Source: Candidatus Cloacimonadales bacterium (GTDB lineage Bacteria; Cloacimonadota; Cloacimonadia; Cloacimonadales; JAFGVF01). Taken from it: a stretch of 64,000 bases of DNA. Of this stretch, positions 1-29,351 are shown piece by piece (the first letter of the stretch is position 1; every line of letters starts with the position of its first letter). Position numbers and translations under genes: made by a program. The notes under the pieces are model-generated. The model saw only the letters and a program-made list of their open reading frames with translations. It was not told the DNA's origin and ran no database searches. The DNA is taken from NCBI GenBank assembly GCA_963663475.2, contig CAXXJV010000002.1, positions 160,001-224,000 of the forward strand, read 5' to 3'.

Positions 1-1489
1 ATCTCATCTCACTAAGTTGAGTTTGCAAATTTATTATGATAGCACTTAAAGCATCTTTCTGTCTGTGAAGATCATTTAACAGAGAAGAAACTTCAGGGTT
101 TAACTCCATACTCTTAATAATTCGTGCTAAAGCAATTTTCCTTTGGGAAAGAGAGATAACTTTTGTTTCTGATTTGATCAAATCTGATAGAATTTGTTGC
201 TTTAATGGATTATTACCAACACTTTTTAATTGAACATTCTGCTCAGCACCTTCTTCAATTAAAGTGGTTATATTTGCAATATTTCTTCTGATACCAATAA
301 CTTTAGGATGGTTTTCTCCATAGGAAGTTAAAGCTCTAGCAAGATCAACTTCGAGATTGAGAAGTCTCATTTTAAGGGGTTCACTGTAGGTTGTTTCGGT
401 AGTATATTCCGAATCTTCTTCTTTTAATCTTTGTTTTAATGCTCGAATATTGGCATTTTCTGATTCAAGTTCAACCTCTGTACTTGAGAGTATGTCTTTA
501 AAACTAGATAAACGCTTAAAATTATCTTCAATATCACCAGAAAAATTTTTAAAATTATGTTTTCTATAGAGATTTTCAATAGCTACATTTAGAGAATCTA
601 ATTCCCTATTATTCCTGTCTAATTGCTCTTCTAAATAGCGGATAGTCTGAGCATAGTTATCATTTCTGATAGACATATCATAGTCATTGACTGCGTAATA
701 GTAGTAATTAGCAATCTGGGCTGCGATATTAGGGTTTGTGTGGGTAGAAGTGAGGTTAATGACTCTTTCTTCATCTCTTAAGGTAGAGGTCTCTAGAGAA
801 GCTTTAATAGCTCCTGGAGAAACAATTCCTTCCATATAACGAGATACTCTAGTAGCTACATCAGATGATTCGATAATCTGTATCCAAGTAGAAAGTTTCA
901 TTTGTTCTTTAAGAACAGGTTTCTGATTAATAACTTTAAGTTCCATAATGTCATTATTAATCAAGAGTTTAGTAGTTGCCTTGTAGATAGGAGTCTGGTT
1001 TATTGAGTAAATATAGGCTGCTAAAATTAAAGCAATTGTTACTAAAATTATCATAAACTTATAACGATAAGCAATCTCTAAATAATCCATGATATTTATT
1101 TCATCTTCAAATATGTTCTTCTTAGGTGGAGCAGGGGGATAATTTGTATAGCGATTTACTTGGTCATTGTTTAGAGAAGAAGTCTGTTGATTTGAACCTG
1201 TATCTGGATTATTCACAAAATCAGTTCCATAAGAACCAATATTGGCTGGCTGATTAATTTCTAAATTAGTCTGATTAGTTACTTGCTGATTAGTTTGGTC
1301 AATATTATTGCTCTTAAGATTAGACTGTAGATCAGGAGAACCATCCTTTTTTTCACTTCTATTAACGAAAACAGATTTTTTCCCATCTTCATTTTTCTCA
1401 GAAGTAAAAGCATTTTTATCAATCTCGCTAGCTTTAGCAGCTGCTCTCATTGATCTTAATTCTGCAATAGATATTTTTTTATCTGCCAT
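1..1489 (-). CDS. Wzc/GumC-type polysaccharide co-polymerase (chain-length determinant), runs off window edge
   Basis: Not in ORF track (open at edge). Hand translation from ATG 1489: MADKKISIAELRSMR..., about 125 aa N/Q-rich leader, then Wzz-type start 'EDEINIMDYLEIAYRYKFMIILVTIALILAAYIYSINQTPIYKATTKLLI', 'NPNIAAQIAN', coiled coils and 'YGENHPKV'. C-terminus (possible BY-kinase) not visible. Confidence 0.85.
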   Translation of the reverse strand, partial: MADKKISIAELRSMRAAAKASEIDKNAFTSEKNEDGKKSVFVNRSEKKDGSPDLQSNLKSNNIDQTNQQVTNQTNLEINQPANIGSYGTDFVNNPDTGSNQQTSSLNNDQVNRYTNYPPAPPKKNIFEDEINIMDYLEIAYRYKFMIILVTIALILAAYIYSINQTPIYKATTKLLINNDIMELKVINQKPVLKEQMKLSTWIQIIESSDVATRVSRYMEGIVSPGAIKASLETSTLRDEERVINLTSTHTNPNIAAQIANYYYYAVNDYDMSIRNDNYAQTIRYLEEQLDRNNRELDSLNVAIENLYRKHNFKNFSGDIEDNFKRLSSFKDILSSTEVELESENANIRALKQRLKEEDSEYTTETTYSEPLKMRLLNLEVDLARALTSYGENHPKVIGIRRNIANITTLIEEGAEQNVQLKSVGNNPLKQQILSDLIKSETKVISLSQRKIALARIIKSMELNPEVSSLLNDLHRQKDALSAIIINLQTQLSEMR

Positions 1490-1492
1490 TAG

Positions 1493-2326
1493 TTACTGCC
1501 CATTGTTTTCTAAATCTTGAAAGACAATTTCTACTAAGTCTTTATCGATAAGTTTGATAGATTCCATAGAGGCTATATCCATGGATATTTTGCAAACTCG
1601 GTTAATTTCTCTTGGAATTCCGTTAGTTTTAGCATGGATTAAGTTTCTTGCTTCAGGAGAAAAAACATGGCTTTCTGCACCTGCTATCTTTAATCTATGC
1701 TGAATATATTTACTAGTCTCATTTGCTGAAAGATGGGAAAGATGGTAACGCATACCTATTCTTTGGTTGACTTGAGGTAACTTTTCAACATTTTTAATTA
1801 AAGATGGTTGACCTATCAAGATGATAATAATTGGACTATCAAAACCAAAGGTTATATTGGTTAAATCTTTTAAATAATCAAGGTCTCGAGAGGCAATTTT
1901 CTGAGCTTCATCAAATAAAAGAAAGAGTCTATTATTTGAGCTATTGAGTTTTTTTTCTAGAAGTTTTCTTAATTTAATTTCTAAAGAATATCTACGGGAA
2001 GGTAGGTTATCAGGGTCTTCTTTAGTTAGCTGATAGAGGGTTTCTTTCATTATCTCAGCAAAACTGTAGGAAGTAGAATTGATATTAACAAGCATGTTGT
2101 CAGGATTTTCTGTTTTTAAAGATTCAATAAGAACTAGTTTTGTAATAGTTTTTCCTGTGCCTACATCACCACTCAGCATTCCCATATTCATAGAACCTGA
2201 TTCTGTAACGTAATGCAGACGTTCTAGTGCTTCTAAATGGTCAGAACTTTTATAGTAAAATCTTGGGTCGTTGTTATCCTGAAAAGGAGGGATTTTTAAG
2301 TTCCAAAAGGAATAATAATCTATCAT
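1493..2326 (-). CDS. ExeA/GspA-type AAA ATPase (stand-alone, no PG-binding tail)
   Basis: N-terminal 'YYSFWNLKIPPFQDNNDPRFYY', Walker A GDVGTGKT, Walker B LLFDEAQ, 'ILIGQP', 'YIQHRL', 'GIPREINRVC'. Confidence 0.9.
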   Translation of the reverse strand: MIDYYSFWNLKIPPFQDNNDPRFYYKSSDHLEALERLHYVTESGSMNMGMLSGDVGTGKTITKLVLIESLKTENPDNMLVNINSTSYSFAEIMKETLYQLTKEDPDNLPSRRYSLEIKLRKLLEKKLNSSNNRLFLLFDEAQKIASRDLDYLKDLTNITFGFDSPIIIILIGQPSLIKNVEKLPQVNQRIGMRYHLSHLSANETSKYIQHRLKIAGAESHVFSPEARNLIHAKTNGIPREINRVCKISMDIASMESIKLIDKDLVEIVFQDLENNGQ

Positions 2327-3015
2327 TAGCTTTCCTCTTTTCTCTGTTTGCTAAGTTTAATCTCAACTCTTCTATTCTTTTCTCTATTTATTTCAGTATC
2401 ATTTGGGGCAATAGGTTTAAATTCTCCATAGCCCATAATCTGCAATTGATCAGCAGAAAAATAATTATTTCTTAAGAAAAATTTAACTATACTAAGAGCT
2501 CTTGCTGTTGATAGCTCCCAGTTAGAAGCATACTTAGTAGTTGATATGGGAATATTATCAGTATGACCTTCTATTCTAATACTCCAACTGTCGCCGTCAT
2601 CAATTATGCTTTGTATTTCTTTAGCAATATCTAAAAGAGTGGACTGTGAGTTCCATTTTAAATCTGCCTTACCACTTTCAAACAAAATTTCTCCTGGAAT
2701 GGAAATAACTTTTTCATTGAGGTCAGAAACTTCTTCATAGAGAGTTGAATCAACTGCTACTTCATTTTCTGATAGTATCTTCTGGGCTTGCTGATCAGCA
2801 ACATTTTGCCAGCCTATTTCAGTGTCTTTTATTAAATAGAAAAAAACAAAGAATATTAAGAGAAGGGTCATCATATCAGAGTAGGGAACTAAGCTCACAT
2901 AAAAACCTGAAAAATCACTCTCAGGGCTGTCAAAATCTTGCCCTTTATGCTGATCTTCTGCAATATCATATTTGTTAGTCTTGATTTTATCCCTATCCTT
3001 TAAAGAATTAAACAT
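2326..3015 (-). CDS. motB: MotB/PomB-type stator subunit
   Basis: TM motif 'VPYSDMMTLLLIFFV' with the conserved ion-binding Asp; OmpA-like PG-binding domain 'EGHTDN...SNWELSTARA...GYGEFKP...NRRVEI'. Confidence 0.92.
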   Translation of the reverse strand: MFNSLKDRDKIKTNKYDIAEDQHKGQDFDSPESDFSGFYVSLVPYSDMMTLLLIFFVFFYLIKDTEIGWQNVADQQAQKILSENEVAVDSTLYEEVSDLNEKVISIPGEILFESGKADLKWNSQSTLLDIAKEIQSIIDDGDSWSIRIEGHTDNIPISTTKYASNWELSTARALSIVKFFLRNNYFSADQLQIMGYGEFKPIAPNDTEINREKNRRVEIKLSKQRKEES

Positions 3016-3745
3016 AAATCTTTTCTAGACCTGCTTTAATCAATTCTGAGTTCTTTTTGTTCATAATTCCGATTACACCTTCAATGATAATTTTCCTACT
3101 CATAAAGGAATATTCAGCCTTGCTGGCTAGTTTACCTGACATAGGTCTGAAGATAACAACAGATATAATTAGTCCATAAAGGGTAGTAACTAAGGCCAAA
3201 CTCATGGCTTTAGGAATGACTGTTGGGTTGGTAATATTTCCTAACATAGCAATCAAACCAATAACTGTTCCTATCATTCCAAAGAGAGGGGCAATATTAC
3301 TGGCAACTGAAAATATTTTAGCTGAATTCTTATGCTTATTCAAAATAGAATAAGATTCTTTTTCTAATAATCTGGGTATTTCTTCGGCAGGAAGATTATC
3401 AGTAATTAACTTTAAAGCATTTCTAAAAAATGGTAACTTCTGAACTTCATCGTAGTCCATGATTTCCTTGATAGTAACAGAACGAGAATCTTTACTAATG
3501 GAAACTATAGTATCTACTAGGTCATCATGACTATATTGATCTTGTGGGTTACTATGAAAGAAGTCCTTTAGAGCTCTCATAAGAGAAGTAGCTGAATAAG
3601 TGCTTATTAAAGATGTAATGGTTCCACCAAAAGTTACCAAAAGAGCTATGGGATCCAAATAAGAACTAAGGTCTCCTTTATTATTAATAGCAATAAAGAG
3701 TATTAAAACACAGAGAAACCCACCAATAAAAGTAGAAATTTTCAT
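3008..3745 (-). CDS. motA: MotA/PomA-type stator subunit
   Basis: 'ALLVTFGGT' in TM2, 'APLFGMIGTVIGLIAML' and 'AMSLALVTTLYGL' in TM3/TM4, 'IIEGVIGI'; 8-nt overlap with motB. Confidence 0.92.
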   Translation of the reverse strand: MKISTFIGGFLCVLILFIAINNKGDLSSYLDPIALLVTFGGTITSLISTYSATSLMRALKDFFHSNPQDQYSHDDLVDTIVSISKDSRSVTIKEIMDYDEVQKLPFFRNALKLITDNLPAEEIPRLLEKESYSILNKHKNSAKIFSVASNIAPLFGMIGTVIGLIAMLGNITNPTVIPKAMSLALVTTLYGLIISVVIFRPMSGKLASKAEYSFMSRKIIIEGVIGIMNKKNSELIKAGLEKIYV

Positions 3746-3757
3746 AAATTAAAATCC

Positions 3758-5140
3758 TTAATAGTTTAGTATATAACGTATTTTTTGAAGTGAATGATTT
3801 ATAATTTTTTCAGCTTCATCTTCTTGAATTTTACCGATTACTTCCATATCTTCTTTAAGAATAATAACAGCTCTTTCTGATAATTGAGAGAAAAACTTCT
3901 GCCTAATATTATCTGGCAAGCATTTAAGGAACTGTACCATTTCTAAATGACTAAACTCACTGTTAATCTGCTCAATTTGGACATTCTTGAGATTTAAAAT
4001 ATCATCCATTAGGAATATTTTCTGTTTAACTTGCTCAGCAATTTCTGGTTTTAACTCTTTTAACTTGTTGAAAAGAGTTTGGGCTACACTCAATGAAGAA
4101 GAATTGATAAAGTTTATCATTGTCTTCACATTGTTAATTTTAACAGGATTTTTATCAAGGGCTTCCAGATACTTCTGATACATTCCAACAACCATAATTT
4201 TCATGTCTAATTGCAGAATATTTTCCATCTCTATTATATGTTTCAAGACTTCATCAATAGATCCATCATAAAATTTGAAAAAGTAATCGACCTTACTAGC
4301 TTCAACCTGTGTCAAGATTAAAGCGATTTCACGAGGATTCTCGTTTTTCACAATAGAGAGAAAATTACTGTTAGATAATTCATTAAGGAAATCAAGATTG
4401 GTATTCTCAGCCTCATCATCATCCTTGAGTAATTTTACCTGTAGAGGTTTATTTGAACCTCCTGAAAGCTGATTATTTGCAGCTGATTCTGCACTTTTGA
4501 ACATTTGAAAATCTCTAGTTTCCCCTAACTTTAGCTGGTCAAGGTTAGATATCTTTATTCTTCTTAGGGACTTAGCAATGATTCTTGTTGAATTTCTAAT
4601 ATTATTAATTATCAACATAGCTAAAAGAAAAGCTATGAGTAATAATACGTTTCTAAAATTAAAGAGGGAAGAACTAGCACTAGTAACCAGGGGTAGGTCT
4701 GCTCTAATAGATACTTGGTCCTGAGTTACTAATTCTTGGGAAGAAGTGTTTATGACGATTTCTTCAATCTCTTTAAGTAGCTCTTCTTTAGTGTCTTCTG
4801 GAACCCGCACCATAATCGATAATTTTGTTATTTCAGTAGGTGCATAGTCGCTTAGATCTATGTTAGGCATTGAAGAATCACTCTTACCAACTGGTAATCC
4901 TGGTAGACTTAATTTCTCATCAAGTCTTAAATTACCTTGGTTTGACTCAAATAGATTATACTTTAAATCTAAATCTACAAAGACAATCGCTCTATCAACA
5001 AAAATACTTAAATTTTTCTCTATTCTCTCAGCTAACTCATTTTCTGCCTTTATTTCTCCTAGCGAGTTTTTAGGAGTTGCTGTCAGTAGTGTGTTAGTGC
5101 AAAAGAATAGTGCTAAGATTAATCCAATATATGATTTCAT
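3758..5140 (-). CDS. Membrane-anchored FliG-like rotor protein with N-terminal FliF/RBM3-like periplasmic domain (FliF-FliG-like fusion)
   Basis: Likely ATG 5140 (AGGGGT RBS; track starts at TTG 5194). Signal/TM 'MKSYIGLILALFFC', FliF_C-like 'VFVDLDL...PGLP...ITKLSIMVRV...ELLKEIEEIV...DQVSI', TM 'VLLLIAFLLAMLII', FliG_M-like 'ENPREIALIL', 'IFLMDDI' (MFxF-like), FliG_C torque helix 'FFSQLSERAVIILKEDM'. Confidence 0.8.
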   Translation of the reverse strand: MKSYIGLILALFFCTNTLLTATPKNSLGEIKAENELAERIEKNLSIFVDRAIVFVDLDLKYNLFESNQGNLRLDEKLSLPGLPVGKSDSSMPNIDLSDYAPTEITKLSIMVRVPEDTKEELLKEIEEIVINTSSQELVTQDQVSIRADLPLVTSASSSLFNFRNVLLLIAFLLAMLIINNIRNSTRIIAKSLRRIKISNLDQLKLGETRDFQMFKSAESAANNQLSGGSNKPLQVKLLKDDDEAENTNLDFLNELSNSNFLSIVKNENPREIALILTQVEASKVDYFFKFYDGSIDEVLKHIIEMENILQLDMKIMVVGMYQKYLEALDKNPVKINNVKTMINFINSSSLSVAQTLFNKLKELKPEIAEQVKQKIFLMDDILNLKNVQIEQINSEFSHLEMVQFLKCLPDNIRQKFFSQLSERAVIILKEDMEVIGKIQEDEAEKIINHSLQKIRYILNY

Positions 5141-5751
5141 TAAACTTACCCCTATTGTGGCAAGAATGAGAAATAAGCTAATTTTGGCAAGCACTTTTTT
5201 TTATAATCTTTATAATTCTGCAAAATTTGCATGTTTATGGTTATTATAAACTCAAAATGTCTCCCAAAAATAATGTTAAAATAATATAGTAAAATGTAGA
5301 TTATATCTATGTTAAACAGAAAGATAAGCTGAATATATAGAAATGAAATACTTATCTAAATTAGCAAAATGTCTTCTAAAAGTATCCATTTAGAAGGGAG
5401 ATTAATATTTTCTATACAATCTGCAAATTTAAGAGTCTATTTCCTAATAAACCCTAATATTGCTAGAGAATTTAGCCAATGTACTTATTTCTAATATTCT
5501 ACTATTTTCCCCGAGCTTACAGTCTGAATTTTTCTTTTAAGGAGTCTATCCTAACCAGCGAGTATTCAATGAATAATACATAAATTAATGCAAATAATTA
5601 AGTCTTAATTTTCATTATCCAACAAAGATACTACCAGTAAAAATATAGTGACAATACAAAGATAAATTCATTGATAAAAAAAACTGTTAATTCTTTCTTC
5701 TAGTAATGTGCCTATGGCTCACCTGTGTTTTGTTTCCCTTAGCCATGACTA

Positions 5752-5814
5752 ATCCTTCCTTTACAGTCTTTCGATGAAAGTCCAGGTTTCATCGAAAGAC
5801 TGTAAAGGAAGGAT
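5752..5814. repeat. Perfect 28-bp inverted repeat (palindromic element, copy 1)
   Basis: ATCCTTCCTTTACAGTCTTTCGATGAAA-gtccagg-TTTCATCGAAAGACTGTAAAGGAAGGAT; near-identical copy at about 47485-47544. Confidence 0.95.
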
Positions 5815-6058
5815 CAAGGATGAACCAAGGGTAAAAAACATAATTTCGGAAGGTGAAAATCATTTTAAAGCAATATAAAAACATGTTTATAATTTGCTAG
5901 TTAAAAAATATTTAATATAACTACTATAAATCTACAAAAATAAAATAAATTAAAAATAATCAAGAAATGCAAGCAGAATATTCTCTTGAATCCTATTTTT
6001 TTATTGACTATGATGCTTGTCTAAATATTATCAGCCCATAAATCATAGGAGCACTTTA

Positions 6059-9000
6059 ATGAAGTTATTTATAGCTAAAAATAAGACTATTCTTGTACTT
6101 GCTTATCTCTTAATGTTTGCTACTTTTCTCGCTGGAAACAAGCAGTTTGATCTAAACAGTTGGCAAGGAAACTATAATGTTAAAGGGAAAAATGCTTTTG
6201 ATCAATTTGGTTATCAAATTATGTCTGGTGACTTTAATGGCGATGGAATTGATGATATTATTGCCTCAAGTCCTTCAGCTGATCCATTAGGTAGAAACTC
6301 TGCAGGAGAAGTCTATATTTTTTGGGGTAATGAACAGAGTGAACAGTCTGTCAACATAGATTTAAGTTCTGCTACTGCAGATGTAACCATTATAGGGGCA
6401 GCAAGTGGAGACAAACTAGGCTACTCAATAGCTACCGGATCCTTTAATGGTGATAGCTATAGAGATTTTGCTATATCAGCTCCTTATAGCAATAATGGGC
6501 AGACTCTCCAAACTGGTTCTGTTTACTTATTTTATGGAGGCACAAATCTAGCAGGGACTATTGATTTAAGTATCGATACAGCCCAACACCACTTTCTGGG
6601 ACAAACAACAAATGATTATCTCGGGCAAGAATTAATCTTTACAGACCTTAATAATGACAATAAGGATGAATTAGTAATTTCTGCTCCTGAAGGAGATAAA
6701 GCAGAACTTAATAATTGTGGTTTGGTTTATCTTATATGGTCTCATGAAAGTTATGGACAAACAGTTAATTTATCACAAGCTAGTAATATTTCATTTTTGG
6801 CTGGTTTGTCTATTAATGATAATTTAGGACGATCCCTAGCAAGTGCCAATATTAATAATGATCTTTTTCAAGACTTACTTTTAGGAGCTCCTGGAGTTGA
6901 TGAGGAGAGTCTGATAAATAACGGGAGTGTATATCTTCTTAAAGGGCGGACTTTCTTTCCTTATGGGGAAATATCCCTAGTTAATGATAATTTTATTGAA
7001 ACTGAAATTAAGGGAGGCTTTCATTCCTCAAATTTAGGAAGGACTATGGCTGCTGGTGATATTAATGGAGATGGATTTGGAGATATTAGTCTAAGTGATT
7101 TTTCTCAAAATAGCGCTTCTAATCTGGTTTATATCGTCTATGGAAGCAATTCTCTAGCTAGCTCAATGAGCCTTAACGATGAATCAGCTAATATAAAGAT
7201 ATCTCATCAAGGAATCTCAGATAATTTATTTGCAACAAATCTCTTTATTGGTAATGTAAATCAAACCAGTCCCGAAGATTTAATAATTTCTTCTCCTCAG
7301 GCTTTTTCCAATAATGGTAATGAAAGTGGCTTAGTACATGTTCTTTATGGAAGAAATCAGTTTGAAACAAGCTATGATTTAGCACTAGATTCTTACGATG
7401 AGATATATCATGGACAGGTAGCTAATGCAAATTTGGGTTCTGCTCTAGCTTTAGCTGATTTTAACAATGACCTTAAAACAGATATATTCCTAGGTTCAAT
7501 CAATGCAGGTAATACTAAAGGTTCTCTTTATGGAGTCTATGGAGGAATACCATGGGCCTGGAACCTACTGCCAACTGACGGAGCAAGCAATGTTGATATT
7601 GATCAAGCAATAGCTTTTTCCTTGTCTGATGACCAGCAAATAGACTTAAACTCTCTTAATGTTAATATTGCTGGAACAGCTTATGATATCAATTCTAATA
7701 ATCTCTCCTATAGTGGTTCTGGAAACTTTTATAGGATAACAATTGTACCAGAAGCCTATTTTGGTTATAATCAGATAATCAATGTAAGTATTCAAGCAAG
7801 TGATAATGAAGGTTGGCAGATACCAACAAGCAATTATAGATTTTTTACTAGAGAAGATACTGATCCACCCTTTACTAACCAATGGTTACCAGCTCCTGAC
7901 CAACAAGGAGTTCCAATTGATACTAATATTGAATTTAATGTCTATGATTTAGGAGAAGGGGTTAATCTATCCTCAATTATCGTTAATATTGATGGAACAA
8001 ACTACTATTCTGGTTCTCCTTACTTCTCTCACTTAGGGCAAGTTAATAATTTTAGAATTATAGTTAATCCACCAGACAACTTTTCTTTTGGACAAGAAGT
8101 TTTTGTTACAATTGATTGCCAAGATTTAGCTCCCCTCCCTAATTCTATGTCCACCTTTAGTTATTCATTTATATGTGGACAGGATAACTCAGCTCCATCA
8201 ATTATTGTGATTGAGCCTAGTTATGGGGAAGAGGTGGCCAGAACTAATATCTTATCTGTTGAGGTAGCTGATAGTGAATCAAATCTTAACCAGAACTCCT
8301 TAATCTTTAGACTAGATAATGAAAATATCTTACCATTCTCAGATATTCAAACTCTTAGTAATGGCAATCTAAAAGTTACTTATAATCCTTTAGAAAATCA
8401 GTTATTAACTTATGGACAAAGAGAGATTTATTTTTATGTGGAAGATGCTTCAACTAATGCTAATAGTATTGATACAACTTCTGTTTTTACTGTGATAGCA
8501 GATAATCAAGCCCCCTATACAGCTAATCATTTCCCAGAAAAGTTCTCTGTAGATAATCCAACTAATAGCCAATTTAAGATTGATGTTTTTGATTTGCTCA
8601 GTGGTATCGATCTTACAACTTTATCAATAAAAATTAATGATGTAGAAATTAGTCTCAGTGAAACTACTTCAATATCTGCCCTCAATAATGGATATAGGGT
8701 CATTTATAACCCACCTGAAAGACTTGTGGGGGAGGTATCGGTAGAAGTTCAAGTAAGCGACTTAGAAAATCCAGCTAATACCATGCCTTTAGAAAGCTAT
8801 ACATTTACAACTTCTTTAGATGAAGATGCTCCTTATATTAGTGATTTGTATCCTGAGGAAGGGGCGGTTAATATACCCATAGATGCTAATCTTTCCTTTA
8901 AACTTTATGATGATAAAACAGGGGTAGATAGGTCGTCTATCCAAGTTTTAATAAATGATAATGATGTTAGCCAAGATTTGAATATTGCTACTATTTCAGG

Positions 9001-10723
9001 AGGCTTTGATCTTCTTTACCTGATAGATTACCCTTATGATTTTAATGAGCTGGTAAGTGTCTTTATCAAGTGTTCAGACTTAGAAGAACCAGCTAATTTT
9101 TACGAAAACAGCTATACCTTTAGAGTAACCCCTGACCTAGAAGCTCCTTACTTAGTTAACTTATTGCCTGAGGCTAATGCAAGTGGTGTTGCCGTTGATA
9201 GCGGTGTTTATTTCGAAATCCATGATAATGGTATAGGTATTGATATTGCAAGTCTTGTAATGAAGGTTAATAATGAAAATGTAGTTCCTGAAACTAGTCA
9301 AATTCCTGAAACTATGTTTTATGAGGTTTTTTATAGTGGCCAAGATTTTGAATATGGTCAAGAAGTAAGAGTGCTTGTATCTGTGGATGATTTAGCTACT
9401 AATCCTAATAGCTTAACTAATTTTAACTATAGTTTTACAGTAGTTGATGATGACCAAAGTCCACCAATTTTTACAGGACTAACCCCTGCTGAAGATAGTA
9501 GTGATAACCCTGTGAATACTTCTATATCAATGTCAATAATTGATACAGAATCTGATGTTGATCAGAATTCAATAATATTTAAAATTAATAACACTAGTAT
9601 TGAAGACTATCAGCTTACTCCTCTACAAACAGAAGAAGGGTTTGGTTATAAATTAAACTATCAACCTCAAATCCCTTTTGCATATGGAGAAATAGTCAGG
9701 ATTCAAATATATGCTATGGATACTTCGAGTAATAACAATGCTTCAAATAAATCATATTCTTTTACTTGCCAAGAAGATAATCAAGCTCCTTATCTAGAAA
9801 TATCAACTCCAGCCGATGGCGGTCAAGGTTATGCTAATTCTATTCTATACCTTTCCCTAAAAGATGATCTATCTGGTATTGATGATGATAGCTTCTCCCT
9901 GATCATTAATGGAGATTTTATTACTGCCTATCAAGATTCCTTACATGATAACCGCTTAGAAGTCTGGTATTCAACCCAATCTTTCTTTGCTAATGAAAGT
10001 GTAGCTGTGGACTTTTCTGTATCTGATAATGTAGGTAATACTTTCGAAGATTCTTATAGCTTTGATATTATTCCAGATATTTACCCACCTTATTTTGTTA
10101 TGGAGAAACCAGAAGATAATTCAGATCTTGCTATTTATGATTATTTAGAAATAGCAATCTTGGATAAGGGCGTTGGCATAGAAGAAGAATCTATTTCTTT
10201 TATGTTAAATGGGAGAATTATTGAAAATTATCATTTAGATAGAGATACTTATAATAGTAATCCAGATTCCCTAGGATTCATCCTCAAATATCAGATTGAT
10301 GATACTTATTATCCTGGTCAGAATCTTGCTATCCAGATTTCAGCAAATGATAAAAATCAACCACAAGCTCTTCAAAATATGCAAGAATATAATATTTTTG
10401 TTGAGAGGGCTTTAGCTCAAGATAAGGTGGAAGTTATACCTAATATAATTTCACTCAATTTTGATGGTATTAACGATTATAGCAGGATTATTATTCCTAG
10501 TAGAGCTAAAGTTTCGTGTAAGATATTTACTAGGGCAGGAAAGGAAATACGAGACCTAGCCACAAGTGTCTATCAAGTACAAGGTGATTCTGATAAGCAA
10601 TATCAAGTTGCTATTTGGGATGGTAAAAATTCAGATAATAAAGCTGTCAATGCAGGTATTTATATCTGCCAAGTTAAGTATGGAAGTAAGGTCCATAGAA
10701 ACACTATAACGGTGGCGAAGTAG
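6059..10723 (+). CDS. Giant secreted adhesin-like protein: 7 FG-GAP repeats, 9 Ig-like repeats, type-B T9SS/CHU_C-like C-terminal domain
   Basis: ATG 6059 with AGGAG RBS and signal peptide; seven 'GDxNGDGxxD'-type blades; nine about 110-aa 'DxxAPy...P...V..D..I.F...D' repeats; C-terminal 'VIPNIISLNFDGINDY...WDGKN...NAGIYI'. Confidence 0.85.
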   Translation: MKLFIAKNKTILVLAYLLMFATFLAGNKQFDLNSWQGNYNVKGKNAFDQFGYQIMSGDFNGDGIDDIIASSPSADPLGRNSAGEVYIFWGNEQSEQSVNIDLSSATADVTIIGAASGDKLGYSIATGSFNGDSYRDFAISAPYSNNGQTLQTGSVYLFYGGTNLAGTIDLSIDTAQHHFLGQTTNDYLGQELIFTDLNNDNKDELVISAPEGDKAELNNCGLVYLIWSHESYGQTVNLSQASNISFLAGLSINDNLGRSLASANINNDLFQDLLLGAPGVDEESLINNGSVYLLKGRTFFPYGEISLVNDNFIETEIKGGFHSSNLGRTMAAGDINGDGFGDISLSDFSQNSASNLVYIVYGSNSLASSMSLNDESANIKISHQGISDNLFATNLFIGNVNQTSPEDLIISSPQAFSNNGNESGLVHVLYGRNQFETSYDLALDSYDEIYHGQVANANLGSALALADFNNDLKTDIFLGSINAGNTKGSLYGVYGGIPWAWNLLPTDGASNVDIDQAIAFSLSDDQQIDLNSLNVNIAGTAYDINSNNLSYSGSGNFYRITIVPEAYFGYNQIINVSIQASDNEGWQIPTSNYRFFTREDTDPPFTNQWLPAPDQQGVPIDTNIEFNVYDLGEGVNLSSIIVNIDGTNYYSGSPYFSHLGQVNNFRIIVNPPDNFSFGQEVFVTIDCQDLAPLPNSMSTFSYSFICGQDNSAPSIIVIEPSYGEEVARTNILSVEVADSESNLNQNSLIFRLDNENILPFSDIQTLSNGNLKVTYNPLENQLLTYGQREIYFYVEDASTNANSIDTTSVFTVIADNQAPYTANHFPEKFSVDNPTNSQFKIDVFDLLSGIDLTTLSIKINDVEISLSETTSISALNNGYRVIYNPPERLVGEVSVEVQVSDLENPANTMPLESYTFTTSLDEDAPYISDLYPEEGAVNIPIDANLSFKLYDDKTGVDRSSIQVLINDNDVSQDLNIATISGGFDLLYLIDYPYDFNELVSVFIKCSDLEEPANFYENSYTFRVTPDLEAPYLVNLLPEANASGVAVDSGVYFEIHDNGIGIDIASLVMKVNNENVVPETSQIPETMFYEVFYSGQDFEYGQEVRVLVSVDDLATNPNSLTNFNYSFTVVDDDQSPPIFTGLTPAEDSSDNPVNTSISMSIIDTESDVDQNSIIFKINNTSIEDYQLTPLQTEEGFGYKLNYQPQIPFAYGEIVRIQIYAMDTSSNNNASNKSYSFTCQEDNQAPYLEISTPADGGQGYANSILYLSLKDDLSGIDDDSFSLIINGDFITAYQDSLHDNRLEVWYSTQSFFANESVAVDFSVSDNVGNTFEDSYSFDIIPDIYPPYFVMEKPEDNSDLAIYDYLEIAILDKGVGIEEESISFMLNGRIIENYHLDRDTYNSNPDSLGFILKYQIDDTYYPGQNLAIQISANDKNQPQALQNMQEYNIFVERALAQDKVEVIPNIISLNFDGINDYSRIIIPSRAKVSCKIFTRAGKEIRDLATSVYQVQGDSDKQYQVAIWDGKNSDNKAVNAGIYICQVKYGSKVHRNTITVAK

Positions 10724-12306: not shown

Positions 12307-15300
12307 ATGAAAAAGATATTACTCATATTAGCTCTAGTAATAAATCTGTTAATAATATCGAAAGTCTTCGGTAGTGAAGTCGATTTAACATACACCGAAG
12401 AACAATACTTACAAGAACTGGGACCAATAAAAATAGCAGTAGATCCAGATTGGTACCCCTATGAGTTTGTCGATGAACATGATAACTATGCTGGTATTAT
12501 TCCAGAGATATTGATTTTATTAGAAAACAGATTAAATATCAGGTTCGAAAGAATCCCTACTAAAGATTGGTCAGAAACAATTGCCTTATCCCAAAAAGGA
12601 CAAGTAAGCTTAATCCCTGCCTTAAACCAAACAGAATATCGAGAAGAATGGCTATATTTTACTGATCCAATAATGATAGAACCTAATGTAATTATCACTA
12701 AAAAAGATGCAAGTTCCATCAATAATTTAGCAAAGATTAAAAACAAAACTCTTGTAACTATACCCAATACTATGATTGATGAATGGGCAAGAAAAGATTT
12801 TACTAACCTTAACTTAATCTATCGCGGTACAGAATATGAATGCTTACAAGCCGTTGAATCAGGTCAAGCTGATCTAACAGTTCTTAACCTTCTCTTAACA
12901 CCCTATAGATTAAAAAGACAAGGTTTCCTAGACTTAAAAATAAACAATGAAATCCCAGGATATGCTAACCATATTAGAATGGGAGTTGTAAAATCTGAGC
13001 CCCTCTTAGTTGAAATACTTAATAAGGGGATTAGGTCAATTGCTTTCTATGAAAAAGAAGCAATTATCCAGAAATTTATTCAAAGTAATATGGAAGAACC
13101 TCTCAATTATCCTGTTATATTTACTATTAGTTTCGTAGCTATTCTCATTGCTTTAATTTTGTTTCTTTGGAATAGAAAACTAAGAAAACTAAACTTGCAA
13201 ATTAAAGCAGGAGAAGAAAAACAACGAGCAATTATTCAAGCAATACCTGATGGTTTAGCTATTTCTGATTTGCAAGGTATGATAACCTATGTTTCTAAAG
13301 AAGCATTAAAGATGTGGGGCTTTTCTTCAAAAAATGATGCTGTTGGTAAAAACATTTTGAACTTTATTCATCCCAGCTATCATGATAAAGCTCTAGATAA
13401 TATTAAACAAATGTTGCAAGGTATTTCAACAGGCTTTACAGAATACAAGATGCTAAAAAAGAATAGGAAAAGATTCTATGCAGAAGCTAATGCAGAGGTT
13501 ATAAAGGATAATAATGAAAAATCAAATGCTATTCTTTTTGTAATAAGAGATATTACTGAGAAAAAACAAACAGAACTTAAACTTAAAAAAGCTATTACCC
13601 GTTATGAATCAATAATAAATCATTCACGAACAATAAATTGGGAAATTGATAATAATGGACTATATACCTATGTAAGTAGTAATGTTAAGCATGTTCTCGG
13701 CTATGATAAAAAAGAAATTGTCAGGAAAATGCATTTTTATGATCTTTTCCCTGCAAATATGCCTGAAGATTTTAAAGAAAAAGTCTTAAATATAATGCGA
13801 GAAAAGAAGTCTATTTTGGATCTTGAAAACCCTGTTGTTCATAAAGAAGGAAGATTGATATGGTTACTTACTTCAGGCTTACCTAAGTTAAATGAACAAG
13901 GTAAAACAATTGGTTACCAAGGCTCAGGAACCGATATCTCTTTACGTAAGAATGCTGAAGAGAGACTTAAAGCTCAGAGTAAGTATCAAAAGACTATTGC
14001 AGAAGTCTCATCCCAGTTTATAGATGTTAACTTGGATAATTACCAAGATAAGTTTATGATGATGCTATCTAAACTAGGAAATGAACTAAATGCTAGTCAT
14101 ACCTTCATTCTAGAATTATCAGAAGATAAAAAGATCCTCAGAAACACCTATGAATGGACTGCTAAAGGAGTAATACCAAGTAAGAAAAAACTAGATCAAG
14201 TTAAATTGTCTGACTTCCCAGGAATAGCAGAAGTTATTGAAAAGCAAGAAAGAATTCTGGTTAAAGATATTGATGAACTTACTTCAGATAATCCTTTTAA
14301 AGACTTCTTAAAGTTTATTGGAGTAAAATCAGGAATATGTTTGCCTATTATCAGAAGTAATAAATTCTTTGGTTATTTTGGTTTTGATTCAGTTTATCTG
14401 CCCCTTAACATAGTTGAAGAAGATCTTGAACTTCTCCAAATTGCAGTTAATGTTATTGGAGATATTTATATTAGAAACAATATTGAACTAGAAAAAGCTA
14501 AAATACAAGATTCTCTGAGGGAAGCTAGTATCCAGGCCCAACAGGCTAATAAAGCTAAATCCGAATTCTTGGCTAATATGAGTCATGAAATTAGAACCCC
14601 TCTTAATGGTGTTATTGGTTTTACAGAGTTATTGTTAAATACAGACCTTGATCCAGTCCAAGAACAATATGCCTACCATACAAATGTCTCAGGACAAGCT
14701 CTACTAGGTATCATTAATGATATTCTAGATTTCTCAAAGATTGAAGCAGGCAAACTAGATCTGGATATCCATGAAGTACATATCCATGATCTGCTAAATC
14801 AAGTGGTAGATATTCTTCAATATCAAGCAGATAAAAAGAAGATTGAACTCCTAATTGATATTGATCCTAAACTTCCAGATTTAATAAAAGCAGACTCAAT
14901 AAGGCTCAAACAAATTTTGATTAATCTTTTAAGTAATGCTATTAAATTCACAGAAAAAGGGCAAGTCAAAATGAAAGTTGATTTTGAGCAAGCTGATAAC
15001 TTCAAGGGGGCTTGTACTTTTTCTATTGCTGATACTGGGATTGGAATTCCTCAAAATCAATTGAAGAAGCTCTTTCTTGCCTTCTCCCAAGCTGATGGTT
15101 CAATCACTAGAAAATATGGAGGGACTGGTTTAGGATTAACTATTTCTAACTTATTAGTCCAAAAAATGGGTGGGGAAATACAGGTTGATTCTCAAGAAGG
15201 TAAGGGCTCTAACTTCTATTTCACTATTATAACTGATTATTATCGACAAGATAGAAAGGATATCGAACACGATTATTCCCATAAAAAGATCTTGATAGTA

Positions 15301-16122
15301 GATGATAACGACCATAATCGCCAGATTATTGAAAAGAATCTTAATCATTGGGGAATTAATTATCTTAGTGCTAACTCAGGCCAAGAAGCCTTGGATATTC
15401 TTGCTAAGGATAATGAGATAGATTTAGCTATTTTTGATTTAATTATGCCAGGAAAGGATGGAATAGAAAGTATTAGGGAGCTAAGACAAAGATTTGATAA
15501 CTATAAAAATCTACCAATAATCCTCCTTCATAGCTCTGTAGAGGATAAAAAAATCAATCAAGAAGCACAAAACTTGAATATTGCTCACAAAATGGTAAAA
15601 CCACTTAAAGCAAAAGAGTTGAAAGAACTTATCTTCTCAATATTTGAAGATAATTCTCGTAACATAATTAAGCTCTCTGCTAAATCTTATGAACCAACCA
15701 CTTATACTCTTGATAAGGGTAAACAGAAGGTCCTTATAGCTGAAGATGTGGAGTTAAATTTAGTCTTAATTAAAACTATCATTAAAAAGGCTATTCCACT
15801 GGTAGAGACAGTTACTGTAGTCAATGGTCAGGAAGCAGTAGATGTCTTTAAAAAGAACAAGTTTGATTTAGTTTTAATGGATGTTCAAATGCCTGTTATG
15901 GATGGACTACAAGCTACTAAAATTATCAGAACTTTAGAAAAAACAAGAGATCATAAAACACCTATATTAGCTTTAACAGCTGGGGCAACTAAAGAAGAAA
16001 CTAGAAAATGCCTTGAAGCTGGTATGGATGAAATAGTTACAAAACCTATTGACCAAGAAAAACTAAGATCTATTTTAGATAAACTACTTAAACCCAATAA
16101 TGCAGTAGATCTTTGTGAATAG
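12307..16122 (+). CDS. Hybrid sensor histidine kinase (periplasmic SBP, 2 PAS, GAF, HisKA, HATPase, 2 REC)
   Basis: 'DPDWYPYEF' SBP domain; TM; H-box '[15 protein letters not shown]'; '[10 protein letters not shown]', 'DTGIGI', 'GGTGLGL'; REC 'DLIMP' and '[10 protein letters not shown]'. Confidence 0.95.
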
Positions 16123-25555: not shown

Positions 25556-28444
25556 TTATTTCATAAGAATCATTTTATTAGTTTGACTTAACCCCTTGTC
25601 GGTAGTTAATTTGTAAAGATAAAGTCCAGAACTTAACTCTTTGCCCTGCTTATCTTGTCCATCCCATGACATCATATGCTGTCCTGTAGCAAGATTATTT
25701 CTTTTATGGCTATAGACTAGTTGCCCTTTAATATTATAAATCTTTAGGTGGATATCAGCCTTTGTCTTTAAGTAAAAACTAATTGTGGTTGCTGGATTAA
25801 AGGGATTAGGATAGGAAGATAGTCTTAAAGCAGATTCAAGCTGGTTTATCTCATTATCATGATTTGCTACACTCTCATTGAAAGACATTAAAGCTTGGTT
25901 AAGAAAATCTTTAGCTTGGTGATTCTTGATAAAGTAGAGTGGGATAGAGGTAAGTATAACTTGAGAGTTCTCTAGTTCCTTACTAACAGCTACAATATAA
26001 TCATCAAAGTCATTTTGCGGGGAAGTAGTTAAATCTGATTGATAGGTTAACAGATTTTGAACAGAGTCATCATCACTAGTTACAAGGGCTTCTAAACTAA
26101 AAACTCTTCCGTCAAAAGTTGGATAAATTTTATCAGGATCAATTTCTAAGTCTGGAATATCCCAATAGATTGATTGTCCTCTAGCGAACCTAGCAGAAGA
26201 ATTGTTATCTACCTGGTTAATACCAAAGACTTGGTTAGCTAAATCATTTGGGGTGAATGTAGCAGGATAAGTTTCATTGTTTAGTCCTAAGAAACGCAAA
26301 GGATCTGCTGCAGAGATTAAAAGGTTACCGCCTAACTGACTGTAGTTATTTAGGATTGGGACTAATTGAGAATTAGTAGTTGTTGAGAAGGAATTTTTAA
26401 AGATAATAAGGGTAGAGTAGATACCGATAGTTTCAATTTTTATTTCTTCTAAATCACTGGCAAGAATTAAATCATAAGAAAAATCATCAAGACTTTGCTC
26501 ATAGAAGCTCTCAATAGCTGTTTGGGCAGGGAAGAGAAGGTTAGATTCTGAGAAAGTAGTAAAATCTAGGATTCCTATACCTGCATTGAAGCTTAAAGGT
26601 CTGCTGACAATACTTTCAGAATAATCACTTTCATTATCATCAAAATCGTAAGCAGTAACTACATAGTTGTACCAAGAATGGTCTTGAACATCGTTGTCAA
26701 TATAGCTAGTAAGATCATTAGAAATACTTGCTAATAGACTATAATCACTTTCATTTTCTGCTTTTCTATAGATCTTGTAGCCTGCTAAATCTAATTCAGA
26801 ATTAGCCTGCCAAGTAAAGCTAATCTCATTAAGACCTGGTTGATGACTAAAGTTTTCAACTATTCTTGGTCTACTTTGAGGAGTGATAAATCTTGTTTCA
26901 CCAAAAGATATTGAATCGCTCCAGTGGGTGAAAAGTGTTACTTCATAAGGGGTATTATCTTCCAAATCTTCTATTGTATAAGAGTTGGAAATTGTGAAAA
27001 TTGAATTAAGTTCATCAGTAATAAGATTTTTAATATCTAACTTGTATTCTACATCCCATATATTAACTTCATCCCAAGATGCGTTAACGGAAGTTCCTGA
27101 ACCAGTATCTTCAAGGGTGAAGTTCTCAGGAGAAGGCATTAAATTACCTACAGAAATAGCTGTAGATGCTACAAGCTTGATAAATTGGGCAGCATAGTCT
27201 GGATTAGTGTTTTCACTTATGTCTTGGTCTGAATGATAATAGGGAGAGAACTCATACTCAGCAAAGAAAATTGCTTTAAAACCATTAGAATGATAGGCCC
27301 AGCTATCTGACCCAGTAATAGAAGTATCTAGGGCAAAAGTAGTCATATCCAATTCTGAGCTATTAGCAAGGGCTAGATTTGTAAGTCCTTCTGCTCCAGG
27401 ATAGTTTCTTAGAGTAAAGATATAATCATCTGAAGGAGAATTTGAAATCATATCACTGTTGAGCATGGCTACGACATTAACATTATTATCTGCTAAATAC
27501 TCAGCATCATGATAGCCACCAAAAAGACCAAACTCCTCCATAGCAAAAGTAACAAATCTAAGGGAATTATTGAGTTGAATATTGTTTTCTTTTAGAACAC
27601 GAGCTGTTTCTAAAACAGCTGCTGTTCCACTAGCATTATCATCTGCTCCAGGTGCATAAGTATATGCTTCATTTATATTTGGAGTAATTATTGAATCATG
27701 ATGACCACCAATTACTACATATTGGTCAGGAAATACAGATCCTTCTTCAATACAAACTACATTATACTGCCAAGTGTTGTAGTTATTTACATAGAAGGAA
27801 TCTATAGCTACATTTGTGTAGCCAAAACGAGTAAACTGACTAGCTATCCAGTCTGATATTTCTCTTCTATTGTCTAAAAGAGCAAAGCGAGAACCGTAGT
27901 CTTCTAAAGTCTGTATGTAAGAAGCTATTGAATCAGCATTAACAGACTCAAGAACTTGATCAAGATCACGAGTAATATTGGTATCTAAGCTTGTTTGTTT
28001 ACTATAAGAAGAAGCTTTATTACGGTAAAGTTTGGAACTTGTTCTGACAGGTATAAATTTAATTCCTGCCTGGGGAAGGAGATTATCAGGTCTTATTTGT
28101 GCTTTCTCAAGTCTAATTTTATCATTAATTAATATCTCATCTAAATAAGCTTGTTTTTGCAGTTGAAAGCCTGGTTTAGCTGAAATTATATAAAGTGGAG
28201 AAGTATTATTATCACTGGTCAAAAGCCTATAAGGTATTTTAGCTGCATCTAGATCAGCAGTTTCTTGAGGTGAAACTAGCAGGTAATCATCCATCTCAAA
28301 ACAGAGTTTTACATTAAGCTCTTCTAATTTATTTAGTGACTTGTGATCTGTTTTTTGAACTTCTATAATGGTTTGTGAGTCAAGTAAAGTTGAGAAAGAA
28401 CCTACAAAAATTAAAAGTGTTAGCAATAAGCTGTTCTTGGTCAT
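25556..28444 (-). CDS. Secreted M28 aminopeptidase with FN3 domains and T9SS/FlgD-like C-terminal domain
   Basis: 'GGHHDS', 'GADDNASG', 'MEEFG', 'NSDM', 'YYHS'; FN3 'WQANSELDLAGYKIYR'; CTD 'YPNPFNP...WDGQD...SSGLYLY'. Confidence 0.92.
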   Translation of the reverse strand: MTKNSLLLTLLIFVGSFSTLLDSQTIIEVQKTDHKSLNKLEELNVKLCFEMDDYLLVSPQETADLDAAKIPYRLLTSDNNTSPLYIISAKPGFQLQKQAYLDEILINDKIRLEKAQIRPDNLLPQAGIKFIPVRTSSKLYRNKASSYSKQTSLDTNITRDLDQVLESVNADSIASYIQTLEDYGSRFALLDNRREISDWIASQFTRFGYTNVAIDSFYVNNYNTWQYNVVCIEEGSVFPDQYVVIGGHHDSIITPNINEAYTYAPGADDNASGTAAVLETARVLKENNIQLNNSLRFVTFAMEEFGLFGGYHDAEYLADNNVNVVAMLNSDMISNSPSDDYIFTLRNYPGAEGLTNLALANSSELDMTTFALDTSITGSDSWAYHSNGFKAIFFAEYEFSPYYHSDQDISENTNPDYAAQFIKLVASTAISVGNLMPSPENFTLEDTGSGTSVNASWDEVNIWDVEYKLDIKNLITDELNSIFTISNSYTIEDLEDNTPYEVTLFTHWSDSISFGETRFITPQSRPRIVENFSHQPGLNEISFTWQANSELDLAGYKIYRKAENESDYSLLASISNDLTSYIDNDVQDHSWYNYVVTAYDFDDNESDYSESIVSRPLSFNAGIGILDFTTFSESNLLFPAQTAIESFYEQSLDDFSYDLILASDLEEIKIETIGIYSTLIIFKNSFSTTTNSQLVPILNNYSQLGGNLLISAADPLRFLGLNNETYPATFTPNDLANQVFGINQVDNNSSARFARGQSIYWDIPDLEIDPDKIYPTFDGRVFSLEALVTSDDDSVQNLLTYQSDLTTSPQNDFDDYIVAVSKELENSQVILTSIPLYFIKNHQAKDFLNQALMSFNESVANHDNEINQLESALRLSSYPNPFNPATTISFYLKTKADIHLKIYNIKGQLVYSHKRNNLATGQHMMSWDGQDKQGKELSSGLYLYKLTTDKGLSQTNKMILMK

Positions 28445-29303: not shown

Positions 29304-29351
29304 TTTAGCAATATGAAAAAAGTGTATCAGAAAATAAAAAAGGGAGACATT

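Follow-up and report, generated by a model that had tools for sequence, protein, structure and literature searches.

A FliF-FliG fusion rotor encoded with MotA and MotB, beside a type IX adhesin and polysaccharide-export genes, in a Candidatus Cloacimonadales bacterium

The motor operon and its products

A rotor protein that combines parts of FliF and FliG is encoded together with MotA- and MotB-type stator subunits in a 64,000-nucleotide stretch of DNA from a Candidatus Cloacimonadales bacterium (GenBank assembly GCA_963663475.2, contig CAXXJV010000002.1, positions 160,001 to 224,000; this whole stretch, G000:C2:160001-224000 in our numbering, is referred to below as the window). The host genome comprises 3.30 Mb in two contigs and is 99.24% complete. 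Five minus-strand open reading frames (ORFs), with spacings of 12, -8, -1 and 3 nucleotides, encode the rotor, MotA, MotB, an ExeA-like ATPase and a Wzc-type protein, in that order, while genes for a giant surface protein and an outer-membrane barrel protein sit divergently upstream (Table 1). The order and spacing of the five genes, the fusion of FliF and FliG in the rotor and the Wzc identity of the fifth product had all been claimed in the original prediction, and each was borne out by the analyses described here. Because homologues of the rotor begin at M19 of the longest ORF, the gene probably starts at window position 5140, giving a protein of 460 amino acids (aa).

Table 1. Genes and features at the motor locus (window positions, unless another numbering is shown)
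Feature	Position	Strand	Basis
Wzc, first 496 of 891 aa inside window	1..1489 (ORF 2-1489, leaves window)	-	Wzz 9.4e-11
ExeA-like AAA ATPase, 277 aa, ATPase domain alone	1493..2326	-	AAA_22 1.2e-15; TIGR03015 1.2e-41
MotB-type stator B subunit, 229 aa: plug, transmembrane segment with Asp47, OmpA-like peptidoglycan-binding domain	2326..3015	-	Pfam
MotA-type stator A subunit, 245 aa	3008..3745	-	MotA_ExbB 5.1e-25
Rotor, FliF(RBM3)-FliG(M+C) fusion	3758..5140 (longest ORF 3758-5194, 478 aa)	-	460 aa from M19; FliG_C, fold matches
Divergent intergenic region between motor and adhesin operons	5141..6016	.	ORF map
Giant surface protein, 1568 aa: FG-GAP repeats, Big_5 Ig-like, type IX sorting domain (CHU_C)	6017..10723	+	FG-GAP 5.8e-38, CHU_C 2.3e-6
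PorV/FadL-like barrel-TPR protein, 492 aa	10732..12210	+	PorV_fam 1.1e-9 (below cut-off); strong TPR matches; AF2
Hybrid sensor kinase with two receiver domains, 1271 aa; possibly a regulator	12307..16122	+	Domain matches; recurrent neighbour
SLBB + LytR_cpsA_psr (LCP) protein, 375 aa	L007:5721-6848 (G000:C2:157721-158848)	-	Domain matches
Short Wza, 246 aa, Poly_export + one SLBB	Left of window, after SLBB-LCP	-	Domain matches
921-aa protein, last operon gene	L007:2126-4891	-	No Pfam or NCBIfam match

From its N to its C terminus, the rotor consists of a signal-anchor transmembrane segment, a periplasmic RBM3-like domain, a second transmembrane segment, a disordered linker and the middle and C-terminal domains of FliG. 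The FliG part is recognised by sequence, with a match to Pfam FliG_C (PF01706) at 1.8e-15 (57.6 bits, cut-off 23.3) and one to the NCBIfam fliG model TIGR00207 at 3.3e-21, which at 76 bits lies below the cut-off of 226.7 and covers model positions 109-308 of 338. An AlphaFold (AF2) model built from 18 sequences (mean predicted local distance difference test score, pLDDT, 67.7; 80-92 in the FliG part) contains an alpha-beta-beta-alpha-beta domain at residues 45-167, broken by a low-confidence loop at 79-120, as well as a long N-terminal helix and a helix at 180-221, taken as the two transmembrane segments, and a disordered linker at 208-264. The FliG part of the protein matched the FliG fold with Z 14.9, and residues 43-170 matched RBM3 of Salmonella FliF (234-438) with Z 13.3, a root-mean-square deviation (rmsd) of 2.6 A over 94 residues and 19-21% identity (VIA-align), with PrgK (Z 9.1), SpoIIIAG (8.9) and EscJ (8.9) all scoring lower. 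In Foldseek searches, the model matched chains of FliG (2.8e-8) and the RBM3/S-ring of FliF (7.5e-4). The FliF family model PF01514 (YscJ_FliF) had no match on the rotor protein or elsewhere in the genome. The reading of the rotor as a FliF/FliG fusion is supported by the modelled fold for its FliF half, and by both sequence and fold for its FliG half.

The periplasmic region is about 140 aa long and holds a single RBM, with neither RBM1 nor RBM2 (the PrgK-homology region). The N domain of FliG, which in flagella binds the C terminus of FliF, is not present, and a covalent link to the membrane domain takes its place. An invariant loop motif, SLPGLPVGK, lies in the periplasmic domain, and the RBM3 alignment would put this loop at the position of the beta-collar in FliF. 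Conservation was followed across 27 distinct loci (the window, 14 related loci and 12 fetched by genome, after the duplicates L038, identical to L018, and L039, identical to L020, had been dropped). The rotor segment SERAVIILKEDME aligns with the torque helix of Thermotoga maritima FliG, and all 27 loci retain its R441 and acidic pair 448/449. In contrast, the position of the EHPQR motif, the FliM-binding site in flagella, reads ENPRE and varies across the loci, which fits the finding that FliM/N were not found in the genome. A profile search of 1.84 billion representatives yielded 57 proteins below 1e-30, of which about 30, counted at the 50% identity level, match along almost the whole length, with canonical FliG appearing near 1e-25. 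The relatives that were looked up carry the names 'hypothetical protein', 'FliG C-terminal domain-containing protein' or, from the Joint Genome Institute (JGI), 'flagellar motor switch protein FliG'; those named come from Cloacimonadota and from one KSB1 bin.

The stator is of the flagellar kind. The closest solved relatives of its MotA are the flagellar MotA of Clostridium sporogenes (8ucs_C, 2.1e-30) and Vibrio PomA (5.4e-28), and among NCBIfam models MotP matched at 1e-43, as against 2.4e-4 for TolQ and 1.6e-3 for ExbB. The MotB protein matched MotB_plug (4.8e-7) and OmpA (5.4e-19) in Pfam and the MotD/MotB/MotS models of NCBIfam at 1e-33 to 1e-38. The best NCBIfam equivalogs fell below their cut-offs for both subunits (149 vs 394 bits for MotA, 133 vs 283 bits for MotB). 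P153 and P201 of MotA are invariant in 27/27 sequences, and D47 of MotB is retained in 92% of 25 sequences. Judged by these conserved torque and channel residues, the motor looks functional. Three other MotA_ExbB genes in the genome adjoin one or two ORFs of 150-200 aa, which by size alone look like ExbD.

Genome-wide profile searches for FHIPEP/FlhA, FliP, Flagellin_N, FliMN_C and YscJ_FliF returned no matches (the searches did not cover rod, hook or chemotaxis genes), although the same profiles do match in four flagellated controls, E. coli, B. subtilis, Caulobacter and Thermotoga. FliG_C matched this rotor gene only, so that the host genome holds no second FliG by this search. The original prediction had noted that FliM/N, FlhA/B, rod, hook, flagellin and chemotaxis genes were missing from the 64 kb; this extends to the whole genome for FlhA, FliP, flagellin and FliM/N, as well as for FliF and a second FliG, and a complete flagellar set lying elsewhere is contradicted by the same zero counts. 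Furthermore, two genomes, G001 and G020 (loci L031 and L032), each carry the fusion as well as a canonical FliG, which marks the fusion as a separate device and not as a decayed flagellum. FlhA was likewise without a match in G121-G123, three genomes whose completeness was not given. The assembly is very likely a non-flagellar rotor-stator.

The divergent intergenic region contains 11 promoter-like sites, not significantly more than the 6.8 +/- 2.5 found in shuffled sequences, and terminators were likewise not above shuffles. An Rfam scan of the whole window gave no family at gathering scores and, hence, no riboswitch.

Neighbours and distribution of the motor

The barrel-TPR protein and the giant surface protein are the most constant neighbours of the motor. 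The AF2 model of the barrel protein (pLDDT 73.7) has 14 strands in the barrel (residues 62-329), from which a C-terminal TPR domain (390-491) is separated by a disordered linker some 55 residues long, and the even number of strands suggests that the TPR tail should be periplasmic. Against the PorV family model NF033709 the protein scored 38 bits (cut-off 90), and Foldseek matched it to FadL (7.7e-11) and to chains 8gl6_F (rmsd 4.9 A) and 6h3i_F of type IX translocon structures, which we take to be PorV. A co-fold prediction of rotor residues 40-182 with the TPR tail (386-492) scored 0.02, a value that weighs neither for nor against binding.

The barrel-TPR gene adjoins the motor in 23/27 loci; of the remaining four, L017 is without upstream sequence and L035, L042 and L043 are without the barrel. 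A giant protein that shares at least the sorting domain adjoins the barrel in 22/27. Three gene orders were observed: the divergent arrangement of the family to which the window belongs, a single-strand order adhesin-barrel-rotor-motA-motB in other Cloacimonadota, and rotor-motA-motB-adhesin-barrel in Neomarinimicrobiota. Where the barrel is missing, a different protein, of 955 aa and with a Por_Secre_tail, is encoded directly upstream in L042, and L035 and L043 have a gene for a 376-aa TPR lipoprotein-like product after motB. These three loci are exactly those in which the rotor is without the SLPGLP loop, and this co-occurrence suggests the SLPGLPVGK loop as a candidate contact site with the barrel. 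Relatives of the hybrid sensor kinase adjoin the system in L008-L013, and L016, L019 and L023 have kinase and receiver genes immediately upstream of the rotor. In L031, a second giant type IX-tailed protein (1578 aa, with MAM and CarboxypepD_reg domains) is encoded after motB.

Downstream of the stator genes, the operon continues into polysaccharide export. The ExeA-like ATPase matched TIGR03015, the XrtA/PEP-CTERM ATPase model, with 143 bits, below the curated cut-off of 324.5. The wzc gene runs on to L007:6814 (L007:6814-9489; G000:C2:158814), left of the window, and its full-length product has a Wzz domain (6e-11), a weak GNVR match, an AAA_31 kinase domain (1.2e-11) and a C-terminal tyrosine cluster; it scored 114.1 bits against TIGR01007 (cut-off 108.05), and GEGKST, VDAD and IIDTP motifs and a tyrosine-rich tail are present in the translation. 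This Wzc also has a 130-aa N/Q-rich cytoplasmic N-terminal extension and, past the tyrosine cluster, a long tail that is first lysine-rich and then acidic. Between wzc and wza lies the SLBB-LCP gene, a glycopolymer-transferase fusion in a diderm export operon, which is kept in all polysaccharide-linked loci. The gene for the 921-aa protein occurs in 6/8 other loci of family f1 and is absent from the Neomarinimicrobiota loci; Atlas features of the protein resemble TolB/PD40-like clusters, which is a lead only. Class-3 proteins for polysaccharide export at the outer membrane (OPX) have no outer-membrane pore of their own and need a porin partner, according to the part of the source that was available (PMC12819527), and the 921-aa protein could fill the place of the outer-membrane partner that the short Wza is missing. 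The original prediction had pointed to the sequence left of the window for wza, polymerase and glycosyltransferase genes; wza was indeed found there, but the scan of 10 neighbouring proteins, which did not take in four small ORFs further left, showed no glycosyltransferase, flippase, polymerase or exosortase. An MscS-type channel gene stands at the end of the operon here (L007:880-2115, plus strand) and directly after motB in L034 (L034:6964-7869).

The association of these export genes with the motor is real but lineage-specific. In the window, as in 8/8 other family f1 loci (9/9 genomes), motB is followed by the genes for ExeA, Wzc, SLBB-LCP and Wza, while in the Neomarinimicrobiota loci L016, L019 and L023 the same four lie upstream of the rotor gene, on the same strand and in a different order. 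In G068 (family f5), a contig break divides an array into rotor-motA-motB-exeA and exeA-wzc-SLBB-LCP-wza, and a second motor copy in this genome has no export genes in the approximately 4 kb from motB to the contig end. In total, 13 loci in 3 lineages are linked. An ExeA query matched 11 of the 121 Cloacimonadota genomes at E <= 1e-20, the gene lying directly after motB in 10 of the 11. On the other hand, 15 further distinct motor loci have no ExeA, Wzc, SLBB-LCP or Wza in flanks of approximately 2-10 kb, some of which are ended by contig breaks, and the conserved exeA/wzc linkage that was looked for in the original prediction thus stands for the 13 loci and fails for these. A midpoint-rooted tree of rotor, MotA and MotB from 24 loci, which did not include L017, L033, L044 or the duplicates L038 and L039, places the linked loci in two clades and is compatible with either a single or a double origin of the link. 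Elsewhere in the host genome there is one more Wzc-like gene and one more Wza-like gene. In the Neomarinimicrobiota locus L019, a sigma-54 gene (L019:1519-2904) lies just upstream of the exeA-wzc block.

The full-length fusion is present in 24/121 Cloacimonadota genomes (family f1 9/9, including G000; f2 2/6; f5 11/18; f13 2/12) and in 2/121 genomes of the phylum of G121, and a FliG of canonical length is found in 15/121 Cloacimonadota genomes. Many genomes of the Neomarinimicrobiota sample (G124-G238) contain a frame, about 317 aa in length, with a match to the middle region of FliG alone (profile 247-423, E 1e-7 to 1e-10), distinct from the canonical FliG frames of about 345 aa.

Type IX secretion is distributed much more widely. 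The host genome encodes a 2133-aa SprA (G000:C1:1089911-1096300) and has 115 sorting-domain matches; within the window, besides the adhesin, ORFs 25556-28444 (minus), 29313-31838 (plus) and 53899-58071 (plus), that is, C2:185571, C2:191638 and C2:217799, have terminal matches of this type. Models of GldL and GldM (TIGR03513, TIGR03517, PF12081) matched nothing in the genome at E <= 0.1, and as the model controls did not exceed the cut-off, divergent forms are possible; GldM exceeded the cut-off in 0/121 Cloacimonadota genomes. SprA did so in 115/121, and in family f3 it was found in 57/57 genomes and the fusion in 0/57. Because SprA occurs in 115 genomes and the motor in 24, type IX secretion in the phylum is independent of the motor, which is an accessory machine and not the general energiser of this pathway. 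Either the phylum has a strongly divergent type IX motor, or its secretion draws energy from another source.

A proposed machine and its alternatives

Even chances are given to the proposal that the locus encodes a rotor-stator that works on its own and is coupled to a surface adhesin complex, coordinated in this lineage with polymer export. From the computed architecture, conserved functional residues and synteny, and from the searches that found no flagellar export, switch or filament genes, we infer ring formation, rotation, a coupling path and an output, as follows. The 460-aa fusion would form an inner-membrane ring through its RBM3-like domain, from which the middle and C-terminal domains of FliG would hang as a ring beneath the membrane. 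Peptidoglycan-anchored MotA/MotB would use ion flow through the MotB aspartate to push the FliG torque helix and turn the ring. The output would leave by the periplasmic face, where the SLPGLPVGK loop would occupy the beta-collar site of FliF, and would be received by the TPR tail of the PorV-like barrel, which may hold the type IX sorting domain of the adhesin after its export through SprA. The task of such a machine could be to move, turn or tension the surface adhesin, as in gliding or controlled attachment, and in this lineage polymer (slime or matrix) for export would probably be made and placed with the adhesin machine by way of the shared operon. A bolder extension appears rather doubtful: that the system represents a third kind of ion-driven surface motility, besides flagella and GldLM/Agl gliding, in which a MotAB-turned FliF-FliG ring drives an adhesin through a barrel as co-transcribed Wzc/Wza lays down polymer, and that it is a living example either of flagellar parts without an export apparatus or of a pre-flagellar relative.

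Several observations weigh against the coupling of motor and adhesin. The adhesin is not obligatory, because loci of the L035/L043 type have a separate TPR lipoprotein and no adhesin gene close by. The loci are akin, and the co-occurrence of loop and barrel may reflect only two or three evolutionary events. With one RBM, the periplasmic part of the rotor is small and shows no sign of reaching the outer membrane; moreover, strict conservation is not seen for the charges of the MotA loop that partner FliG. Regulation might be the sole reason for the linkage of the polysaccharide genes, and the assembly as a whole is a prediction from genes and modelled structures.

An alternative output of the motor is polymer extrusion itself, the motor directly energising, rotating or positioning Wzc-Wza export. 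This would account for the translationally coupled order rotor, motA, motB, exeA, wzc, SLBB-LCP, wza, for the linkage in 9/9 f1 genomes, in G068 and, in permuted form, in three Neomarinimicrobiota loci, for the near confinement of the ExeA-like ATPase to motor loci (10/11 genomes) and for a short Wza that, at 246 aa, is like the Class-3 OPX proteins needing extra partners (PMC12819527, part of which was available). It is nevertheless considered unlikely as the primary output, because the 15 motor loci without export genes in the fetched flanks indicate that the motor works without them, because one of the two G068 motor copies and not the other is linked to export genes, and because second Wzc-like and Wza-like genes lie elsewhere in the genome. 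We know of no Wzc/Wza system that requires an ion motor. The original prediction had offered a repurposed motor that serves polysaccharide extrusion or surface motility without a flagellum; of these the latter is the better fit, whereas energised extrusion is unsupported as the core function, the near-constant partners being the barrel-TPR protein and the type IX-tailed giant protein, which had not been connected to the operon. A low probability is also assigned to the possibility that the assembly is a load or surface sensor, in which adhesin binding would alter the rotor-stator load and the hybrid kinase and receivers, or the Wzc kinase, would signal polymer export and attachment. Hybrid sensor kinase or receiver genes recur beside the system, a tyrosine autokinase is encoded within the same operon, a gene for an MscS-type mechanosensitive channel is found next to the locus both here and in L034, and flagellar stators are load sensors. 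However, no domain connects the kinase to the rotor, kinases are frequent neighbours in any genome, and full conservation of torque residues, expected of a working motor, is by itself no argument for a sensor.

Replacement of GldLM by the motor as the energiser of type IX secretion is judged very unlikely. The presence of SprA and 115 sorting matches with no match to GldL or GldM in the host genome (and GldM in 0/121 genomes), and of a PorV-like barrel and type IX cargo beside the motor (23/27 and 22/27 loci), would be in agreement with such a role, but as a general role it is largely refuted by the phyletic pattern, SprA being found in 115/121 genomes and the fusion in 24/121, and in 57/57 versus 0/57 genomes of f3; furthermore, GldLM may be too divergent for the models used. 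Hardly any weight is given to a decaying remnant of a lost flagellum, without present function. Canonical FliG does remain in 15/121 Cloacimonadota genomes, yet this explanation is contradicted by the conservation pattern: reading frames are intact, functional residues are kept down to 24% overall identity and in two phyla, the fused architecture has about 30 near-full-length representatives at the 50% identity level, G001 and G020 hold the fusion and canonical FliG together, and non-flagellar partners are conserved beside the motor.

Comparison with known systems

To our knowledge, FliG and MotAB are known solely as the torque pair of flagella. No published description of a non-flagellar FliG-MotAB machine was found in a literature search that missed most subscription journals and supplements. 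A 2025 survey of MotAB relatives separates flagellar from generic transporters and, in the part that was available, does not mention a non-flagellar partner for FliG (PMC12505986). One lead, a MotA/TPR/OmpA set in Fibrobacter, was set aside because the available part of the report concerns ExbBD/TonB and not the same system (PMC6851124). A conserved rotor-stator in a genome in which flagellar export, switch and filament genes were not found would imply that the FliG-MotAB pair can serve another output, and bears on how the flagellar motor arose or was re-used. It also bears on attachment to and movement on particles by non-flagellated bacteria of the Fibrobacterota-Chlorobiota-Bacteroidota (FCB) group, namely Cloacimonadota, Neomarinimicrobiota and KSB1 (one named protein), and on the coordination of adhesin display with polymer export. 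With five core genes and a ring made of a single 460-aa protein, the system should be tractable for expression and cryo-electron microscopy.

The closest natural precedent, as far as the available part of the source goes, is the FliF-FliG fusion of Chlamydiaceae, which is about 330 aa long, contains the middle region of FliG only and is thought to act with the type III secretion system, the flagellar genes listed being FliF, FliL and FlhA only (10.1101/023564). The fusion described here differs in having the C-terminal domain of FliG with its torque helix and a dedicated MotAB, none being listed in that part for Chlamydiaceae. Laboratory fusions of FliF and FliG in Salmonella and Vibrio still form rings, according to the sections of the reports that were available (PMC6079021, PMC10941966), and PDB entry 8z4d has a chain named FliF,FliG; those constructs join full-length FliF and FliG within a complete flagellum, as far as these sections tell, whereas the present fusion is natural, minimal and outside a flagellum.

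With the flagellar motor core, the system shares a ring domain of the RBM3 type, the middle and C-terminal domains of FliG and their torque charges, the MotA prolines, and a MotB with plug, aspartate and peptidoglycan-binding domain. It differs in that FliF and FliG form one polypeptide, in that FliG N, RBM1 and RBM2 are missing, and in that a short conserved loop stands for the beta-collar. FliM/N, the export gate and flagellin were not found in the genome (rod and hook genes were not searched for), and the partners here are instead an outer-membrane barrel-TPR protein and type IX cargo.

On the side of polymer export, the XrtA/PEP-CTERM and Class-3 OPX sets (TIGR03015, 03007, 03018, 03027) supply the best models for the ExeA-like ATPase, the kinase chain-length determinant and the short Wza, all of them below their cut-offs, and differ from the present operon, in which an SLBB-LCP fusion and a motor are included. 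The EpsE clutch of B. subtilis is the known case of cross-talk between an exopolysaccharide (EPS) operon and FliG. In Myxococcus, the AglRQS-Glt/Nfs machinery combines a motor of the MotAB/TolQR family with outer-membrane barrels and TPR proteins and is tied to Wzc/Wza-type export of slime or spore coat. The AglRQS motor is, however, of the TolQR type and has no FliG rotor, and its components are without detectable relation to those described here, so that the likeness is one of analogy only.

The Bacteroidota GldLM system consists of an ion-driven inner-membrane motor, a giant type IX-sorted adhesin that moves on the cell surface and a neighbouring barrel of the PorV/PorP family. Pairs of adhesin and barrel of the SprB/SprF type accompany GldLM in gliding and type IX secretion, in the portion of the source that was available (PMC8986121). 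Both that system and the present one have an ion motor, a type IX adhesin and a barrel encoded alongside. By analogy only, the joining of motor, adhesin and slime is reminiscent of gliding in Flavobacterium (GldLM with SprB/SprF) as well as in Myxococcus. They differ in that GldL and GldM are unmatched here, in that a FliG ring would serve as the rotor in place of the periplasmic GldM shaft, and in that the barrel carries a TPR tail of its own.

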